A DNA stretch of 64,000 bases, from the NCBI GenBank assembly GCA_964276515.1, contig OZ193910.1, forward strand, positions 3,596,001-3,660,000, read 5' to 3'. Shown piece by piece: positions 17,058 through 35,000 of the stretch (its first letter is position 1; each line of letters begins with the position of its first letter). This stretch comes from Gordius albopunctatus. Its lineage: Eukaryota. Under the pieces are notes generated by a model. The model searched no databases, was not told where the DNA came from, and saw nothing but the letters and a program-made list of their open reading frames with translations. The translations under genes and the position numbers were made by a program.

Positions 17058-20000
17058 TCAATTAAGAACAGTTTCATCGAATAAGCATTGTTCTAACATA
17101 AGGCCATTCCAAGGTTTTATGGTAATTTTAACTTGGGTCCCCTTTTTGCTTTGGATCTTTTTTTGCAAAGTTCTCTCCACTAACAGCTTCACTTCTTCCA
17201 GCATCGATTTATTAGTGTCGTCCAATAATGCCTATAAACGTAAAAAGAAATATTAAAAAAAGGATAAAATTTTTTGAAATGGTTGACATTTTTCCCTTTA
17301 TTTTTACCTTTAAAATTAAATTAATTTTAAAATATCTATCAATAACAAAAAAAATCTTTAAAAATTTTATGTCCTTATTTTTATCATTATCTTGAATTTT
17401 TCATGTACTAAATGGCAAAATAGGATCAAAGTCCCAAAATCTAACTGCGGCCCAATCTTCAAATACGATTATAATCTCGAACCAGAAACGAATTTCAAAA
17501 AATTAAAAATCTAAAATCGAATCCTAAAAATCTTTAAAAAATCACCTTCAAACCAAAAAAGTAACGCTTCACTCTAAAAAACATTTCCCCGTAGTACTAG
17601 TTTGGCAAAGCACTAGCTAAAGTATAACATTAAACTTCTCGACACCTCAATGTCACAATTTAAAACCAAACGCATCCTTTTTGCAGCTAAATAAAAAGTT
17701 GTTTTACGTTCAAGTTTTCAGCGTCGTAAGCCTGCGCTTCAACCGATAGGATGCGTATAATGACATTTTCCCCTTGGTTCCTAACGATGGAATTGCCGTC
17801 ACTACAGGCTCTAGCCAAGATCCCCAATGCATTTTGCGCGTAAGATTTAACCGGCCCCCTGTGCAGAGAATCGACGCTCTTTTTGGCGACACTAGCTAAT
17901 GAGGAGCCTAGGTGTGGGTTCGTTTCGAATTGGTAATGGATCGAGTTGATGGCTAGCATCTTGACGTCGTGCGATTTGTGAACTATCGCCTAAAATGACA
18001 AAAATGCTTGCTAGAACCTTATATTATAATATGTTTGCCCTGCACACGGACGTAGCTAGGATTTGAACCAGAGGGAAGCAATAGTGATTGAGGGAGAGGG
18101 GCAAAATGATTATTTCTTGAAATTTTAGCCTTATAGAGGGGGGCAATCGCCCGTCCGTGTCTCTCCCTAGCTATGTCCATTGCTATGCAAACGCCGATTA
18201 TCCCTGGAAAAAATTTCTCGCCTATAAATTAATCATGTCTGGTCAAGGTTTGCGCATTAGGGGATAGTAATACTTCCCGATGAAATAAATAATTTTTCGT
18301 TAGTAAATCGTTCAAAATAATTCTTTTTGTTTGAATTTTTGCTGAAATTTAACAAAATTTTTAAATTTAGATAGGGGTATTTGCCCCCCCCCCGGATACG
18401 TCCATCATACTACTCAATTTAAAATCAACAAAAATACTAGTAAAGTTAATATTAAGGCTCAAAATCGTCTCTAAACACCGAAAACTTTATTTAAAATCGG
18501 TGTCACCCCTATTAAAACAGCAAGGAGAAGGTCGATGCGGTTTGGGACTGACATTAAAAAAATTTGATTAAAAACCATCAAAAGAAATCTATTTTTCGCG
18601 TTACTAATTATGGTACCACATAATTATTTATACAATGATGTAAGGATTCAACTAATAAATAAAATTAATTAAATTAAACTTAAAAGGTGATTTTCGGGAA
18701 TCATTTAAACATCGCAAATTTCAGTCGCAAAACTAATTCGACTGGTCCTATTGACACTCCCTTTAAAAATTATTCCATATTATATCGAATAATATTCAAT
18801 AACTTTCATCATAATTAAAATGACAAACATATACAAAGGTCCGCTATAACCAAGGATCGAGTGACATTGATATTAATGAAATAAAGATCGATATAAAAAG
18901 TGGAAAATTATGGAAATAAAGGGAGAGTATTTTATTCTCAAAACGAAAAGTTGTCAAAAAAAGTGTAAAAAATATATTAATATAGCGTACCTTTGTGGAT
19001 AGACTAAGTAATTGGTCAGGAATTTCAACGTTATTGTTGATATAATAAGATGCTAGGTAATTCAGCATTTTCACGGTAGAAATTGCCGCATTGATCTAAT
19101 ATAATAAATTATAAATACACATTCCTCGTCAAAATTTTCATCGCTATTTTTTCAATAATAAGAGGCTATAAGTGGTATGGGCATATATTGAGAGAGACGA
19201 ATGATGTAAATCGAAAGGTACCGGACATGGAGGTACCAGGGAAGAGAGGAAGAGGACGACCCCGTGTCACGTGGAAAGGGCAAGTCGACAAAGTTATGAA
19301 AACTAAGAAGATTAGTCAAGACATGGCACATACCTGGTCAAGATGGAAGAGACTCATCAAAACAAACTCCACGCCTAATTGCTAAATAAATATAAATTAT
19401 ATCGATCCTATTGCACGCATGTTTAGACATTCCTGCTAACGATTCTGGAAGGTATAAAGGCAAAACTTCTTGATCCATGAAAGATTCGAAACGCAAAGCA
19501 ACAACATTTGACGATGACCTTTTAAATCATCCATAAGCGTAGCCAACATTGGAATTACAGGGGGACAATAATGATTATGGGAGGGGCAAGCCATAATCCT
19601 AATAAGGTTTAACTCTTGCGTTAGGACGACAGTTGGAGATTCTAAACCTTTTCGTGTTAATACTGGATTGCATCAAGGCTCTGCTTTAAATCCCTTTTTA
19701 TTTAATATAATTATAGACACGATAACGAAGGACATTCTAAAGCCATCGCCATGGTGTATGCTATATGCCGATGATATAGTACTATGCGAGGAAACAAGGG
19801 AGAAAGTATTCGAAGAAGCCGAAAAGTGGTCAAAGCGCTTAGCTGGATATGGTTTAAAGGTCAACGATAGTAAAACGGTATACATGGAAATGAACGGTAC
19901 AAGCACCCCATCGCTGGATGACCACCTAAAGTACCCAAAAGTAGACAGGTTCACATACCTCGGCTCGATGCTACATCAAGAGGGAGGATGCGCAACGGAA

Positions 20001-23000
20001 GTCAATGTCCGGATCCGAGATGGATGGCTTAAATGGCGAAGTATATCCGGTGTTTTGTGTGACAAGAAAATGCCAATATGGTTGAAGAGCAAAGCTTACA
20101 AATCCATCGTAAGACCGGTGTTACTCTATGGAAGTGAAACATGGGCATTAAACACCACGGAAGGAAAGCTATTACAAGCCACAGAGATGAGAATGATAGG
20201 GTGGAGCTTGGGGTATACTAAGCACGACCATATGACGAATGACCTTCTCATGACAAAAATGGGTATTCAACCTATGGCCGACATGATTAACGAAAATCGG
20301 CTAAGGTGGTATAGGCATATACTAAGGAGGGATACGGATGACGTAAATCGAAAAGTAGTGCACATGGAGGTACCGGGGAAGAGAGGAAGAGGACGACCCC
20401 GTGTCACGTGGAAAGGGCAAGTGGATAAAGTTATGGAAACTAAAGAGATTAGTCAAGACATGGCAGTCACCCGGTCAAGATGGAAGAAACTTATCAAAAC
20501 AAACCGCACCAATGTGGGACCAAATAACTGATAAAGAAGAAGAATTCCAATAAAGGTTAAAGAAATTTGGGATTTAGATGGGGGCAGCCGCCCCTGCCTC
20601 TCTCCCCCTGGCTACGCCAAGGAATCATTCTCATTAGGATCTTTAAAAGGGGTAAAAGAAGCATTAATTCTATTTCTAATCCGATCATAGACTACAATTA
20701 TTTAAAAATTAGATTCATTTAGTGTTGCAACTTTGGTGTGCTGATGTTTAGTCTACTGAAACCAAAGGTGGACAAAACAAAACCCCGCAATTTTCGCAAC
20801 ACTACATCAACATTTAAGAAGATTTTTACCCTCATAATTAATGTTCTTCATAGATATATTTTAGTAGCGGGCTGCCTAGCACTACTCGACCTTACAATCC
20901 CGCTGTACCAAGAACATGACACGATCATCTATGCGGACGCGTCTGACACGCACATCGGCATATCCTGGAATGATGAAAAATTCTCGGTAACCTTCATTCA
21001 AGCGGCCGATGCGATTGGGCTTGACTGGGTTAATACGAACCACATAACAGCCTCAGAAACACTGGCAGCAGTATACGCGTACCTGGTGGCCTTCCACAAC
21101 GGGGCCCGCTACCCGAAAGTGATTACAGACTCCACCACGGCATACTTCGTACTAAGGAAAGGAGGGTCAAACTCCCCTGTGGTGGAAAAGATCATAGCCA
21201 GATTCGTAGCCACATACAACATCTCGCACCTGCTGAAACTGCACTTCAATTTGGGTTGGATCTCGACAACACTAAACCCAGCCGACGAACCATCACGGTG
21301 CTGGATGGACAAAGACCGTAACAACGACCCAGCCAACAACGACTCGTTCGACATACCTAACCTAGACAGCATCGAGGAAGACATCGACATGGAATTTTTG
21401 GAAAGCGAAAATATTAGCATAGAGGAAGGGGAGAACAGAACAAACCCCTGAGACACGTGACCGAGTCTTATATAAACGCACGTCGCACCGATACCACCAT
21501 TCGCTCTATTTTTCCTTCGCTCAATATTATTTTGCTCCCACGTTTATACGCACCTTGCCCCCTTTTACTTTTACTCTGCAATTTACCCTAAAATTTTCGC
21601 TTTTGTAATGATATATATAGTGTAGAGTAGAAACAATAAACGCCCCTGGTAGAACGATAGCGAAACCAGGGGATCTGGGAGAAGGGCCTAACCCTTCTTC
21701 CAGATTAATTAATTTAACACCCTCGACAATTCCCGAAAATATATCTATGAAGAACTACATCAACATTTCAAAATAACAGAAACTTGAAGTTTTACTTTGG
21801 AGTCGGGGAGTAGATAAGAGTTGAGCTGGTCCAGGAGTTGTTTCCAAAGGAGGGGATCAGTTTGGGGGAGACTAGTCAAAAGGGCAGGGCATTTCTTGGC
21901 TATAACGTAGAGGCACACGTCGTAGCCAACGTCATCTTCATCTTTTGATAGGGGAAAACCTAACGAGAAACAAAAATATTAAAAAAAGCTTTCAAACATT
22001 ATGTAAAACATTCATCTTCATCTTCAATTCTTTGCAATAAACGTATCGAAAGTCTTATTTATCAACATTTCCAAAATAAAATCTACTAATGTTCAAATTT
22101 ATTCAAGTCACATATGAAAAATGTGGCAAAGTTTATCAAGTCTGAGCATGTATTTATTGCATAATAAAAGGTTAAATATTGTGTGTGCTCTCCAAAGTAA
22201 CTTACAATAGACATCTAGCAGAACAGAGATGGCATATAGACAAAACTAGGTTTAAATATGATATACACCTATTCATAATCAATTTTGTACGATTCGGATA
22301 TACTAAATTAAAAAACAAGCTATTAAATACTTTTTCCCACACACTTCCAGCAAATAAAAAAAAATCTCAATTTTGTAAAAAGCAAAGCAATATCCATCAA
22401 TTAATTAAACCAAATCCATTATCTCAAGTATAAAAACTGGGCCTAAATGGTCAATAATTGCTCTAAAACATATAAAATCGGTGGCGATTTGTGGAAAAAA
22501 TCACGTACGTAATATGTATTGTGATAAGAGGTGGAGAAATTGAGATTTTGCAAGATGTTGACATAGGGTACCCAAACAACCCATGGCGATGCGTTTATTT
22601 TCATCGTCGAAACAAAGTAAATCAATCCCTTCCAAACTTTCCCCGCTAACTATGGATTGCGTGATGGGAATCAATTTTTCCTGAATAGATTTAGCTAAGG
22701 CATCACCTATATTGCTCGCCTCGGGGATGGCTAATCTTACAGCGTAAAGCGTGGTTTTCCTACACATTTTTGATTAAAATTGTAAAAGTGACATAAGCAG
22801 GTAAATACAAAAAATGGATGAAATTTATTAGATTAATGTTTATCCCAATGCTGGCTACGGGCATGAAAAGTGTACTTTAAATTTACTTGGTTTACTACTC
22901 AACTCCTTGAGTAAATTGAAGGCTTTAATCGATATGTAAGTTATATGATTAATTGAATGGGCGAAAAAAGAAATTTTTCAAAAATTTTAATTCATTTGAG

Positions 23001-29000: not shown

Positions 29001-32000
29001 TAGATATACAACCTTTCCATTTACTACACCTTAATTTAGCGCTTTAAATAATTTATAATAGTCTTTAACATAACACTTTAACCCTTTAGATTTAATTATG
29101 TTTCTCAATTAAGCGATAAAAATACTTATTTAACGTTGATATTTTAAGTTTAGATTTACTAAAGTTTCGTTAAAAGATGAAAATCGTGAGACAAAATCAA
29201 CATTCTAATCGCTAAATATAATTACAAATCTTTATCTGACACATGGTCCTTGTTGTCTATTGACGAATCTGATGAATAGTTTTTTATTAATACTATTTTA
29301 TGTTCGCTTTTTGCATATTTTATGTATCAATATGCCTAATAAAAGCATTTTAAGAAAAAGAATCAACGGAGCGATTTATAATAAAAGTAAATCACTTTAT
29401 GGATATTCTCAAGTTTATATAAATCCGTTACCGATAATAAATCATAAATTTCAAAACTAAAACTATTTCTTTATAATATTATAACATTGAACGGTAGAAG
29501 AATCAATTAGCCAGCCGGCTCAACTGATTTTCTAATGCAGCACTTAAACTATCGTAAAAAATTAGAAAATTCATTATATCCCTAGAAATAGCAAAAACAA
29601 GCAACTTTAAATCGTTATTATAACACATAAAATCGCTAAATTTGCTCGTTAAACATACAAATTAAAAAAAACAATCGATTAAACTACGTTTTTGTAAAAA
29701 ATCTAGGCGAGATTTTATTAAATCAAATTATTTTTTTTGAATTATTCAAAATAAAAGTACGGTAATTAATTCTTTTTGCGTGGAAGAGATGTGAGAAAGT
29801 ATGAAGGGTATGAGTTGCGTAAGGATTTGTTTCAGCATTCGAGCGGTGTTATGAACGACGATCTTCCAAATGTGAAGAGAAGCGGCTGCTATTTCATCTC
29901 GCGTATCGCACGTACAAATGTACAGGGCTGACAATATTTTATTTTGCCGTTCCAGGCCCAGGGTTTGTGACAATACCTTATTCATTGTGCAAATGTCATA
30001 AAAGATTATTCAATCCTTACATGGGCGTAACAAGCGGGGGGGGGGACAGGGATGGAAGGGCGGCTACCCCCCCCCCCCTAAATCCAAAAATTTGTTGATG
30101 TTTATTAAAAGTATGGCTGAAATTTCAAAAAACGATTAATTTGCCACTACCTAAATCATTATTGCCCCCCCCCCAAATTACAAAGCTGGTTACGCCCATA
30201 AATCCTTATGAAAGATAAAAGCGGATTTAGTCTGAAAATAAAAAGCATGTCCATTATTTTGTTGTCCCAAGGGGCTAGGGTTTGAAACGACCGTTAATTT
30301 TGCAAAAGTAAATTCACATACCAGAATGTCGCTAAAATCTATTTAATCTAACAAAATAGTTGGTAATTTGGAAAAAAAAAATTTAAAGCTTTAACAGCGG
30401 AGATTTTGATAAGACATAAAAAATAATTTGTAATCGAATCAAATGATAAAAATTCAATTAGATTTAGAGCTTTCAATTGTTTATTGTTTACCAGATGATT
30501 CAAACACAGCTGCCTAAAATAGCTAACCGCTGATCCTTTATATATACAATTGGTGTGAAGTTAAGATAAATAAATCGGAAAAACATTCTTAAAAAACAAA
30601 AGAAAATGAACTATATTCCTAATAAAACCTTTTTGTCTCTTTAAAACCATTTTACATTTCATTCAGAATATAAACCGAGTAAAGTTATCAAGACAATAGT
30701 ATTACCTTATACATACAGATCATGTATTACAAATAATAATTATTGAGCCCCTGATTGTGCGAGACAAATAACCAAACTGCAAACATTGTTCAACTATTAA
30801 GCTCAAAACGATTGGCATTTAAATCCTTAAAATCTAGATTCCTAAAATAAATCCTTACTTCTGTGGCAGCTTCAGAAGCAAATGTTTCATCTTCTTCAGA
30901 AACTGTCGTCATTTTCCCCGTAACACCTGCACAAAAAAACATTAGTAAATCAATAATTAATAATTTTTCTATATAAATAGATTCCATTATTTTAAAATTT
31001 ATTTCATTATTTTATAGATGAAAATAAATCTTTCAAAACGCCATAGCTTTATTCACTGCAAAATATGTATAAAAAAACTTACCCAGTATATTAAACAGCA
31101 ATTCCCCTATCAATTGAACCGAGCTGTAACGTATTCTCCAATTGGGAACCAGCAAACCTCGCTCGATCTCGGGCAAGAAAGTTGACATGGTGGCTACGCT
31201 ATATATGCTTATAATGCGTTTACCAGCTTTTATACCCGTTTCTCTGACATATTCAGATTCGTCAGCCAAACCCTGAGAAAAAGCAAATTATTAATTTTTT
31301 AAATATTTTTGAGGTTTAAAGCAATCTTTAGGACAAGAATTATATATAAAGCAATGATTTTTTCCAAATATAACAAGTTTCAAAATCATCAAACCTTAAT
31401 AAAATTTAATGTAAATCTATAAAATATCATTTGCAATGTTAATTTAAGCCTTCGGGAATAAAATTATTTCTAATTTATAGCTTTAGTAAGGATCAAGAAA
31501 AATACCCACTTCTAATAAGGAATACAATGTTTATAAGAACAAAAGAGATTTTGCTTCAACAATTTTATGTTATACCATAATATAAAAATGAAATGGAAAA
31601 CACAATATGAAAAAAAATCATGGTATAAACATAGACTAGATAGAATGCTCATCAACGTTAAATAAGTGTACCAATTTTCCGCTAATTTGAAATGTGCACA
31701 AATAAGAGTAGATATAGTTTATAATAATTTTGGTTAAATAAATTGTTTATAAATGAAAAAAATATAGAACTATTTCAACATTAAAAACAGCATTTTTAAA
31801 TATATATCATTTACACAATTCATAAAAATAAAAATACTATCACGAGGTGATGTTAAAGCAATTTAGTGCCATATGGATTTCATTAAATACTCAATTCTTA
31901 AGATTCTTTTTTATTTATCAACTAATGAGAAAGGTAAATCCACTTTTTCTGTTTGAACAACGGGCTACACTGGAGAAAGAAAGAGGAGATTGTCAAATTA

Positions 32001-35000
32001 AAAATGGCGGATCTAATGGTACACATGTTTACCATACGAAACACATGACATTAGCAGTCGATCTATGTGGTAGTGTTGTAGGGACGGATGGGTTTTGCTT
32101 GGTCGGGCTCAGGGTTTAGTCGAAATTTGGAAAAAGGACGAAACCCAAAGGTGGACAAAACAAAACCCAACTGCCATGCAAGCATGTAGCCTACTATGGG
32201 TATTATTATAGAATACACGAAAAAAGCAGTAAAATATGTAGTATGCAGAGTTAAATCCCCGAATGTCACCAGTAAAAGGGAAGGCACAATTTTATCTAGG
32301 TAAGGGATGAAATCGTCTTTAAAGACGCTGGGCAAGTAGAGGAGCATAAGGAGGTAGCCATCTTTGACGGGGGATGGTAGGTTAGGGGTGTGCAAGGTTT
32401 GAATCACGTCCACTAAGATTGAATCCAATCGCGCTATACCCAATTTTTGAACCATCATACTCAAGCCTAAATTGCATGCAGTGAAATAGTGGCCAATAAA
32501 CGCGATATAGATTTGTGAGGAAACATATGACATTCAAAGCTCCAAACAGGATTTTATAGCCTTTTTATATATAGATATTTAAATAATTTATTAAACTTGT
32601 TCTAAATTTTGATGCTAATTAACATTTACTCTTTAAAAGCTCTAAAATTTGGCGTTCCCTTTTCCATGTTTTCAGTTTCACAAGAATCCATCGCATAAAT
32701 CTCTAATTATATTATCCTACATTTACCAATTTCAAAACTCCCCAATTTTCCATTATTAAAATTCGTCGGAAAAAATAAACTTTTTCCAACGCAGCCTCTG
32801 AATTAAGAATATATGTTCACAAAAAATTCATTTCGAACGCAAAACAAAAACTCCATATTAACCTTGGGCAGCGCCTGATCTATCTACGGCAGATGTTTCG
32901 GAAACGAGAGTTTTCGTAAGCCAGGCCACGAGCTGGTCAACCAAACTTTTATCAACGACACCTACCAAATTGCCTAGGGCATGCGATGCCTGACTCCTCA
33001 CTTCTGGCAAGGGGTCTACCAAACAAACTTTCATACGGGGCAACAAAGCTGGAAGATATGGTTTCACATCCTAAAAAGCCGTCATAAAACTAGATATGAC
33101 TAAATATCTAAAAGATTTAAAGTATTTACTATTTCACAAACTAAATACATATCATACATGGGCGTAGCCAGGGGGAGGGGGGCAGGGAGAGAGAGGCGGC
33201 TACCCCCCTCTAAATCCAAAAATTCAATAAAATTTCAAAAAATGATCATTTTGCCCCTCCTTAAATCATCCCCTCTAATCCCAACGCTCGCTACGCCCAT
33301 GCCATCATTAGCTAAAAAAATTTTTGATAAAAATGATATGCTTAGTTGAAGAAGGGATTGAAATGCAAGCTTAGCCGGATTAGTAAAACCTAAAAATTCT
33401 TAGTATCTTCCTAAAATTAGAATTTTGTTCATAAAAATGGTGGGAAAAACAGATAAAAGAGGCCCGATTATACACTAGTTAGAAAGCATGCTAGCCGAGT
33501 CAGTACATAAGCAAGATAAACCTAAAATATTTAAAGTGATTTTCTTCGGGAATTCCTGAAAAATCAGAATTTTGCATATGAATTGTCGCGAAATCAATTA
33601 AAAGTAGTCTTGTTATACATTAGTTTAAAATGCACGCTTAAATCGTCCCATTAAAAAACTCACGCTTTCGCTGGTTAAATCAAACATGTCAGCTAGAACG
33701 TTCAGTGCCATTCTCCTAATTTCGGAAGATCTATCTTGCATGGTCCTTTGAACGACTGGCATTAGCAGGGCTAGACTAGCTGTGTCAATGGCGTGTACGA
33801 ATAAGCGGGTACCTTACATAAACAAGAAAACGTAAAGCATAAGACTCAACAGATTTTAGTTAAAAGGAAAAGCAATTATTTTAGGCCTCAATTTAACATA
33901 AACATGCGATAAGTTCAAATAGTTGGTTACAACAAAACTTTTCCTCTAATGTTATTCATAGATATATTTTAGGGAATTGTCGAGGGTGTTAAAAAATTAT
34001 TGTAGTAAATATAATATTTTTTTAAAGTCAATACTTTAAGCTGGCTTATTAATCGAGCAATTCATTTATCGTCTTCACAATCCGCATATATTAAAGAAAT
34101 GGTTTATTTATATGAAAAATTCTGTTCTCTTGGATATCCAAATCAACTTTTCAATAATATTCTAAAAAAATGTTTTTTAACTGAAAATAAGCAAAAAAAT
34201 ATTAATGATAAAACATTTATACATTTCCCGCATCACCCATCGTTACCATTTACATTTTTAAAAAGCATTAAAAAAATTTAAGAAGTAATGATATTAATAA
34301 CATCATCATCACACAAAAACCTAATGAATCACTCTTAACAATATTACAAAATAACTATGAATCCGATTTACAGACAAATAACGTTATCTATAAAATTACT
34401 TGTAGTGATTGCAACCAGTTTTACATTGGGGAAACAAAAAGAGACTTAAGAGTTAGGCTTAAAGAACACTTGGCAGCTTTATTTCGCCCCAACGGGGTGT
34501 CTACAGGAATATCTAACCACATTTTAAAGGAAAATCATACGGCGAAACTCAAACAATCAGTTCTACTTTTTACAAAATCTTATTTTGAAAGGAAGACGTT
34601 AGAAGAGTCCTTCTTTATTAGAAGACTTAACCCCACTTTAAATGAAGATATGGGAAGAGTACCCCTCTACCCTTGGATACACACTAATTTATCACTACCA
34701 AAGAACATTCTATTTATTTTATATTTTATTTAAATCTATTTTACTTATCTGACGATGTCCTCTATGAGGACGAAATATTATATTTACTACAATAATTTTT
34801 TAACACCTTCGACAATTCCCGAAAATATATCTATGAAGAACATTAATTATGAGGGTAAAAATCTTCTTAAATATTTTCCTCTAATATTCTCAATGTTTAT
34901 CAATCAATTTTTGGTAGCCTGGTATAAGGGTATGGTGATTAAGAATGCAAATTATCTACGGGTATAAATTCCGCTTAAAATCTACAACTTAAAGGGTTAA

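Follow-up and report, generated by a model that had tools for sequence, protein, structure and literature searches.

Chimeras formed by template switching of non-LTR retrotransposons, U6-L1 among them, arise when reverse transcription starts on the element's own RNA and jumps to another template, and they are one-off copies with target site duplications (TSDs). In VIPER, the frame encoding reverse transcriptase (RT) together with RNase H is the last one. In the parts of published reports drawn on here, the RNase H of VIPER was described as close to that of hepadnaviruses (PMC6681497), and the mobilization of HEART elements was called unresolved (PMC12440569). General features of Penelope elements include an inverted 5' arm and a tail at one side (PMC8557442). 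A lizard Penelope protein was reported to cleave in vitro at ATT and to start reverse transcription at two adjacent internal sites, the spacing of which equals the 30- to 40-nt genomic tail (PMC11167929). Noncoding Penelope partners have been described (PMC8557442; bioRxiv 10.64898/2026.07.22.740005), and capture of unrelated sequence in trans by Penelope, with an inverted pLTR and a TSD, was documented in the rotifer Adineta vaga (PMC3846280).

A 938-nt insert (20816-21753) in Gordius albopunctatus combined Penelope termini with an unrelated body, referred to here as the passenger. The insert was located in a window of 64,000 nucleotides, the whole stretch of DNA analyzed, which had a GC content of 33% and contained spliced genes and many repeats. 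The features of the insert and of a reference Penelope copy in the same window were as follows.

20801-20815, plus strand: left TSD copy, the last 4 nt of which also match the Penelope end
20816-20862, minus strand: inverted Penelope terminus including a tail of about 30 nt (reverse complement of 34822-34868)
20864-21451, plus strand: passenger open frame, cut at its 5' end, with RNase H, an acidic tail, and a stop at 21449-21451
21452-21642, plus strand: passenger 3' noncoding region (motif search; multicopy in contigs)
21643-21705, plus strand: two abutting GC-rich hairpins (21643-21672 and 21673-21705), the most repeated part of the passenger
21706-21714, plus strand: AT-only passenger end and its join to Penelope (junction sequence; loose contig ends at 21714)
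21713-21753, plus strand: direct Penelope terminus without tail (equal to Penelope 34799-34839)
21754-21768, plus strand: right TSD copy, the first 2 nt of which also match Penelope
33939-34885, plus strand: reference 5'-truncated Penelope copy with a 12-bp TSD, an inverted arm at 33951-34019, and a direct end with tail at 34873
34272-34733, plus strand: GIY-YIG frame of the reference Penelope copy (PF01541, 27.3 bits versus a cutoff of 22.6)
34749-34775, plus strand: hammerhead-like core of the reference Penelope copy (pattern scan; no hammerhead among the Rfam matches)

As originally predicted, the insert was flanked by a perfect 15-bp TSD: the same 15-mer was present at 20801-20815 and 21754-21768 (15/15) and was the sole one among 62,900 window 15-mers with a recurrence 933 to 973 nt downstream. 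At the 3' end, the predicted match of 21713-21755 to the Penelope 3' end at 34799-34841 with one mismatch was recovered (42 of 43 identities, E = 6e-15); the final 2 nt of this match are also part of the TSD, which puts the end of the insert proper at 21753 and gives a direct end of 41 to 43 nt. At the 5' end, 20809-20862 matched the reverse complement of 34875-34822 (53 of 54 identities), with the match running into the TSD. The inverted arm of 34822-34868 had likewise been predicted, but at 48 nt, one more than the 47 nt found (20816-20862). The 4 nt of overlap between the left TSD copy and Penelope presumably represent priming microhomology. At the join of passenger and Penelope, about 5 to 6 nt resemble the Penelope sequence immediately upstream of 34799 and were interpreted as microhomology at the point of the switch.

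The insert lies about 27 nt within an apparent minus-strand intron (GT at 21795-21794), and an X3 contig ends at 21796. The exon beside the insert may belong to a large spliced HEAT-repeat gene on the minus strand at approximately 24.5 to 43 kb, which is probably GCN1 and one exon of which matched PF24987 (E = 2e-16) and, weakly, PF23271. The insertion site coincides with the end of one copy (20745-20805) of a dispersed repeat of about 60 nt, which was found at 11 other places (27116, 32142, 35304, 38048, 38196, 41267, 42794, 43463, 44022, 53088, and 56245). Copies of this repeat were 71 to 96% alike over matched parts and occurred on both strands, and the two near 38.1 kb were opposed, in a MITE-like arrangement. 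A 5'-truncated LINE (19575-20544) with an RT frame (PF00078, E = 2e-14) ends about 260 nt to the left of the insert and was present at very high copy in the contigs of runs X1 and X2. An LTR retrotransposon remnant with an aspartyl protease (PF13650, above the cutoff) was located on the minus strand at 60619-62058.

The copy at 34 kb is a Penelope 3' fragment. The insert has its direct end at Penelope 34839-34841 and its inverted end at 34868-34872, and the 34-kb copy, with its direct end at 34873 and its inverted end at 34841-34845, is its mirror image; the two insertions, 13 kb apart, end at the same two sites about 30 nt from each other, with the usage swapped. A 30- to 40-nt tail was present at only one end of the insert, the inverted arm, and 2 to 4 nt were common to target and Penelope at each of the three insertion ends examined. 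Because the ends show the Penelope tail signature, the insertion was very likely made by Penelope machinery, and Penelope RT and endonuclease are strongly implicated. The architecture of a true Penelope copy, with a 5'-cut body, an inverted segment, and a TSD as at 34 kb, was correctly described in the original prediction, and its proposal of integration by Penelope agrees with ends, a tail signature, and a TSD that are those of Penelope integration. A pattern scan found no hammerhead core inside the insert, with cores at 34749 and 31239 only. The second of these hammerhead-like cores (31239-31265, minus strand) has a 5-bp stem and no Penelope context and may be a chance match.

Copy-level questions were put to the contigs of X1 and X2, two runs from the same organism and one study. 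The presence of a contig is informative and its absence is not proof, since contigs lose rare variants and records were filtered, and summed depth does not equal copy number. X1 contigs covered 20517-20838, 20834-21506, and 21728-22200 at depths of 201, 196, and 190, and X2 contigs covered similar stretches at depths of 536 to 588. All three outer joins were crossed by contigs of both runs at single-locus depth, without differences in the insert-side parts and with only 23 to 30 nt on the Penelope side, below the 31-nt bar for a bridge; one run may be the source of the window. Such short Penelope sides are expected because a high-copy repeat starts there. No contig covering the entire insert was found in the X1 and X2 listings. 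A half-depth variant at 20932/20940 in the X1 contig coverage looks like an allele of the insert locus.

Tiny head-to-head Penelope stubs were present elsewhere in the genome in both runs (joints 20860>21713, 20862>21715, and 20862>21726), mostly at approximately single-locus depth and with breakpoints nearly those of the insert (20855-20862 and 21713-21728). Another contig joint found in both runs, 20544>21451, connects the LINE 3' end to the start of the passenger noncoding region, at single-locus depth and with a shorter side of only 23 nt. Nine joints in 21105-21634 suggest passenger copies with internal deletions or diverged blocks.

No GIY-YIG domain was found by Pfam in the body of the insert, which encodes RNase H. 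The RNase H domain occupies approximately 20910-21300 within the frame at 20864-21451, and its residues D25, E65, D89, and D141 correspond in alignment to catalytic positions in relatives. The frame had no match in Pfam or in a PDB sequence search. Its AlphaFold model had a pLDDT of 89.3, with RNase H domains as the best PDB structure matches (E approximately 4e-4, TM approximately 0.5), and with the four acidic residues aligned, the foreign RNase H body named in the original prediction was upheld. The stop follows an acidic tail of about 50 amino acids (aa). A protein search of 1.84 billion representatives returned 12 matches at E values up to 0.001, the top four of which (phmmer, E = 4e-19 to 3e-6) were Gordionus proteins, one of them with RT upstream. 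Compared to other copies in the X1 and X2 contigs, 27 of 34 differences in RNase H fell at third codon positions (P = 5e-8) and 28 of 34 were synonymous, the corresponding figure for the acidic tail being 4 of 13, all counted on the in-frame differences among those listed (40 of 76 and 40 of 316). This excess of third-position and synonymous differences points to purifying selection on the RNase H of the family in replicating lineages. The copy in the insert, which is without RT, is a dead passenger. The assignment of the insert body as the 3' end of a foreign multicopy element with an RT-associated RNase H was thus supported.

The 3' region of the passenger contained a TATA-like word at 21469 and AATAAA at 21635, both putative signals from a motif search, and its longest exact direct repeats were 8 to 9 nt. 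The hairpins at 21643-21705 had a z score of -6.25, and none of 200 shuffles was as stable; in 16 X1 and 26 X2 contigs, G21679A turns the lone G-U pair of the second hairpin into A-U. The join lies about 70 nt past AATAAA, ordinary polyadenylated RNA would fall short of it, and its position remains an oddity under every RNA-based reading. No tyrosine recombinase was found downstream of RNase H in the insert. The insert had no match in Rfam, and two Rfam rows elsewhere in the window were below the cutoffs. A ribozyme role for the hairpins was rejected, since they lacked both a match in Rfam and a hammerhead core, and an LTR start at 21449 was dropped, as most copies carry another letter at 21450.

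The nearest relatives of the passenger were RT-RNase H proteins of Gordionus sp. (XP_065317776.1 [P0001], P0013, P0002, P0003, and P0004). Like the passenger, these are multicopy and carry a short acidic tail between RNase H and the stop, but they are only 31 to 37% identical to it and are annotated as uncharacterized. The passenger may be DIRS/VIPER-like or hepadnavirus/HEART-like, and the description "DIRS-like or hepadnavirus-like" in the original prediction was fair, but trees and fold matches did not separate the two. In a 49-row tree, the Gordionus RTs grouped with three unnamed RTs that are related to proteins with PF00336, a hepadnavirus polymerase domain (support, 96/88); the same grouping received 71/77 in a tree of 29 rows, after one of 30 had been dropped, so that its support was unstable, and the RT and RNase H trees took in no named HEART, VIPER, or virus reference. 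A grouping of the Gordionus RTs with DIRS-type RTs was absent from the best trees, but the AU test did not reject it (p-AU = 0.15). In the RNase H tree, from which 5 of 50 rows were removed because of insufficient length, the fragment joined the Gordionus proteins (91/72) and stood separate from the DIRS1-type and Gypsy rows.

A viral fold search returned an unnamed 634-aa protein and hepatitis B polymerases as best matches, from a library without DIRS elements that cannot choose between the groups. Searched by features, the Atlas placed Euglenozoa-leaning clusters first and a hepatitis B polymerase at rank 15; searched by structure, it placed a methyltransferase-bearing RT cluster first. Atlas look-alikes of P0013 were clusters of 538 to 548 aa, the few recorded members of which are Euglenozoa, and they serve as a lead only. 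These fold and Atlas signals do not separate VIPER from hepadnaviruses because the RNase H of VIPER is itself close to that of hepadnaviruses. After RNase H, the Gordionus relatives extend for 8 to 96 aa and the DIRS-type rows mostly for 130 to 190. A DIRS1-like layout was rejected, as there is no methyltransferase-length extension and the stop comes after the acidic tail. The terminal-protein domain PF00242 had no match in P0001 or P0013, predicted proteins that may miss the true start, and the structure model of the P0001 RT-RNase H was poor (pLDDT, 44). In metagenome contigs, 43 distant loci were found, and the 10 that were scanned yielded 22 frames, with a recombinase after RNase H at 4 of them. 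These four loci (L001, L002, L006, and L012) encode RT-RNase H and then a tyrosine recombinase, and their RTs clustered with P0007, P0008, and P0010 in a well-supported clade distinct from the DIRS1-type rows. The metagenome loci were rejected as a guide to the passenger, since the eight represented by an RT in the tree made up a clade of their own.

The passenger was multicopy and diverse, with 144 X1 and 233 X2 contigs, 94 and 112 of which, respectively, were <90% alike. The stretch used for the contig survey ended 18 nt inside the Penelope terminus, so only body-derived contigs could align there. Summed depth in X1 fell from 9563 and 7960 (21630-21689) to 2039 and then to 195 (21720-21730), with 190 to 201 for the locus's own contigs; in X2 it fell from 70718 and 65828 to 12572 and then to 1129 over the same positions, with 536 to 588 for the locus's own contigs. 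Relative to a single locus, the join thus had a depth of 1.0 times in X1, from one contig, and about 2 times in X2, from two contigs, and the 60 nt of body just upstream reached summed depths of approximately 40 to 50 times (X1) and >100 times (X2) that of a single locus. The higher depth at 21630-21689 would be consistent with a repeat of which each element has more than one copy, and the doubled X2 join depth may reflect fragment overlap or a second locus. Contigs passing an end of the surveyed stretch numbered 2 of 144 in X1 and 3 of 233 in X2; one in each run did so at the left end, and one X1 contig and two X2 contigs continued past the right end.

Among the loose ends listed, beyond which there were 165 more rows, four X2 contigs departed from the passenger at 21714 into unlike sequence, with an agreement of 0.58, and joins at mixed offsets would give low agreement too. 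Simulated agreement was 0.55 ± 0.03 for four unrelated sequences and 0.64 ± 0.03 when two were alike, with only 2% of the latter this low. The four loose ends were short (median, 33 nt), and their majority line, judged by eye, had an 8-nt word in common with Penelope upstream of 34799 (approximately 4% by chance). From this faint likeness, one further independent passenger-Penelope join at another offset is possible. Because join depth falls and the loose ends are unlike, the passenger family appears to end by itself near 21705-21714, and the Penelope terminus appears to be particular to the insert locus. A 1409-nt X1 contig matched 20865-21322 at 80% and had 231 and 720 more letters at its ends; longer passenger copies therefore exist. 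No near-identical donor of the RNase H part was found in the X1 contigs, in which 20834-21506 was unbroken at depth 196. A word-indexed search for longer relatives of the fragment, which is weak evidence, found none among 893 candidates, and none of the 46 pattern matches in each search of viral contigs was confirmed. The depth profile was not upheld as a 5'-truncation gradient, because at 80% likeness its peaks coincide with conserved motifs.

For the observed anatomy, swapped end sites, multicopy passenger, and low join depth, the favored explanation, held with moderate confidence, was a one-off template switch by Penelope RT during integration, onto the 3' end of an unrelated retroelement that is multicopy and encodes RT and RNase H. 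The Penelope GIY-YIG endonuclease would make a cut with a stagger of 15 nt at an AT-rich site in the intron, and both DNA ends would prime on Penelope RNA at two start sites about 30 nt apart, with 2 to 4 nt of microhomology each. The cDNA from the inner site would extend about 41 nt and then jump, via a short AT-rich microhomology, to the free 3' end of a foreign template just beyond its terminal hairpins, of which about 850 nt would be copied. Joining of this cDNA to the 47-nt cDNA from the tail site would yield the inversion, and gap filling would yield the TSD. The original prediction had allowed for either a stable family or a one-off event and had set a unique junction against a family. 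In the contigs the junction appeared unique, with the X2 departures at 21714 leading into unlike sequence, and of the two the one-off template switch is favored and the stable family is not, given a join at 1.0 times (X1) and about 2 times (X2) beside a multicopy body.

A stable nonautonomous family with a fixed Penelope terminus, sharing the 3' end of its partner in the manner of SINEs, would have anatomy identical to a Penelope insertion, and nonautonomous partners with common 3' ends are known for Penelope-like elements of Chlamys, as the cited account describes them (PMC8557442). A shared join would, however, lift the depth at 21720-21730 well over that of one locus, and the selection on RNase H seen at third positions indicates replication with the family's own enzyme; this reading is largely refuted and is considered very unlikely. 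Doubtful for other reasons is recurrent capture, in which an integrase-less passenger would enter chromosomes by repeated switches of Penelope or other non-LTR elements onto its structured 3' end, with the join varying from case to case. The coincidence of the join with the passenger family's own end, the short X2 loose ends with faint Penelope likeness, and the LINE 3' end joined to 21451 in both runs (by a 23-nt side only) are in line with it, but the four loose ends agree to the degree expected of unrelated flanks. It would also accommodate the lack of a recombinase frame after RNase H, in contrast to 4 of the 10 distant loci scanned, and the lack of a near-identical RNase H donor in X1 (contig 20834-21506); yet a recombinase could sit upstream, outside the fragment, and the donor could just as well be missing because a polymorphic source copy was lost.

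Read-through was also judged unlikely. In this case, a short Penelope copy would have landed behind a genomic passenger copy, at a parent locus now lost or polymorphic, and Penelope protein would have acted in trans to retrotranspose the joint transcript; this route has been proposed for pLTR-framed rotifer genes in the cited part of that report (PMC3846280). Read-through accounts for the copying of sequence past AATAAA, and the doubled X2 join depth could represent the parent locus, but the join and the RNase H part were at single-locus depth in X1, which argues against a near-identical parent there, and the Penelope copy would have to have inserted, by chance, precisely where the passenger family ends. 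An event at the DNA level, with a passenger fragment inserted or patched into the head-to-head junction of a tiny Penelope stub, has a precedent in the pure head-to-head stubs with near-same breakpoints found elsewhere in both runs. It is nevertheless a highly improbable source of the insert: there is no duplication around the body inside the stub, and the body ends at the family terminus on one side and is cut mid-gene on the other, the polarity expected of reverse transcription. An assembly artifact joining repeats would fit the fact that no contig spans the entire insert and that each join has <31 nt on the Penelope side, but the TSD is perfect, the Penelope end sites are swapped, and contigs from two runs match at an even depth, so that an artifact is exceedingly improbable.

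Taken as a single event, the template switch is a clean natural record of Penelope chemistry: two loci 13 kb apart show both of the start sites known in vitro, with their roles swapped. The template jump, which likely took place after a mere 41 nt, suggests that foreign templates lacking a pLTR of their own can be delivered by Penelope. The locus also exposes an unclassified multicopy RT-RNase H lineage that occurs in a horsehair worm (Gordionus) as well. If captures were recurrent, one class of retroelement would depend on the integration machinery of another, and the question of how HEART-like elements integrate, which the cited portion of the literature leaves unresolved (PMC12440569), would have a testable answer. 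It is conceivable, at low probability, that the passenger is an undescribed integrase-less agent of horsehair worms related to hepadnaviruses or HEART, integrating only by repeated jumps of Penelope RT onto its hairpin-capped 3' end, with every copy an independent capture that has a join of its own; HEART-like elements would then have a first route of integration.

Among known systems, canonical Penelope/Poseidon insertions share with the insert a 5' truncation, an inverted 5' arm, a 30- to 40-nt tail at one end, an AT-rich target, and a TSD, as described in the cited parts of two reports (PMC11167929, PMC8557442); the insert differs in its non-Penelope body, which has no GIY-YIG and encodes RNase H. 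In contrast to non-LTR chimeras, Penelope lacks a poly(A) end and initiates at two internal sites, and the captured partner here is a retroelement. VIPER-like and other tyrosine-recombinase retrotransposons resemble the passenger in their hepadnavirus-like RNase H and in repeats after the last frame, according to the cited source (PMC6681497), but no recombinase, gag, or split direct repeats were seen in the passenger fragment. HEART elements, nackednaviruses, and hepadnaviruses, in the portions of the reports cited, resemble it in a TATA-like word and AATAAA after RNase H (PMC12691608, PMC11551314, PMC12440569); in contrast to these, no terminal-protein domain was found in the predicted proteins of the Gordionus relatives and no capsid in the fragment. 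A literature search at the level of search results found neither a Penelope-ended RNase H element nor the horsehair worm family of the passenger. The closest likeness is to the captures in Adineta vaga, described in the cited part of that report as single events in which unrelated sequence is framed by Penelope termini, with an inverted terminus and a TSD, and in which an NRPS gene lies between two direct pLTRs, with one inverted pLTR in addition (PMC3846280). The insert, unlike that capture, has no upstream direct pLTR, a direct end of only 41 nt, and no hammerhead core. Capture of unrelated DNA in trans by Penelope is thus already known, and what is different here is a retroelement as cargo, delivered with a 41-nt terminus and no upstream pLTR.
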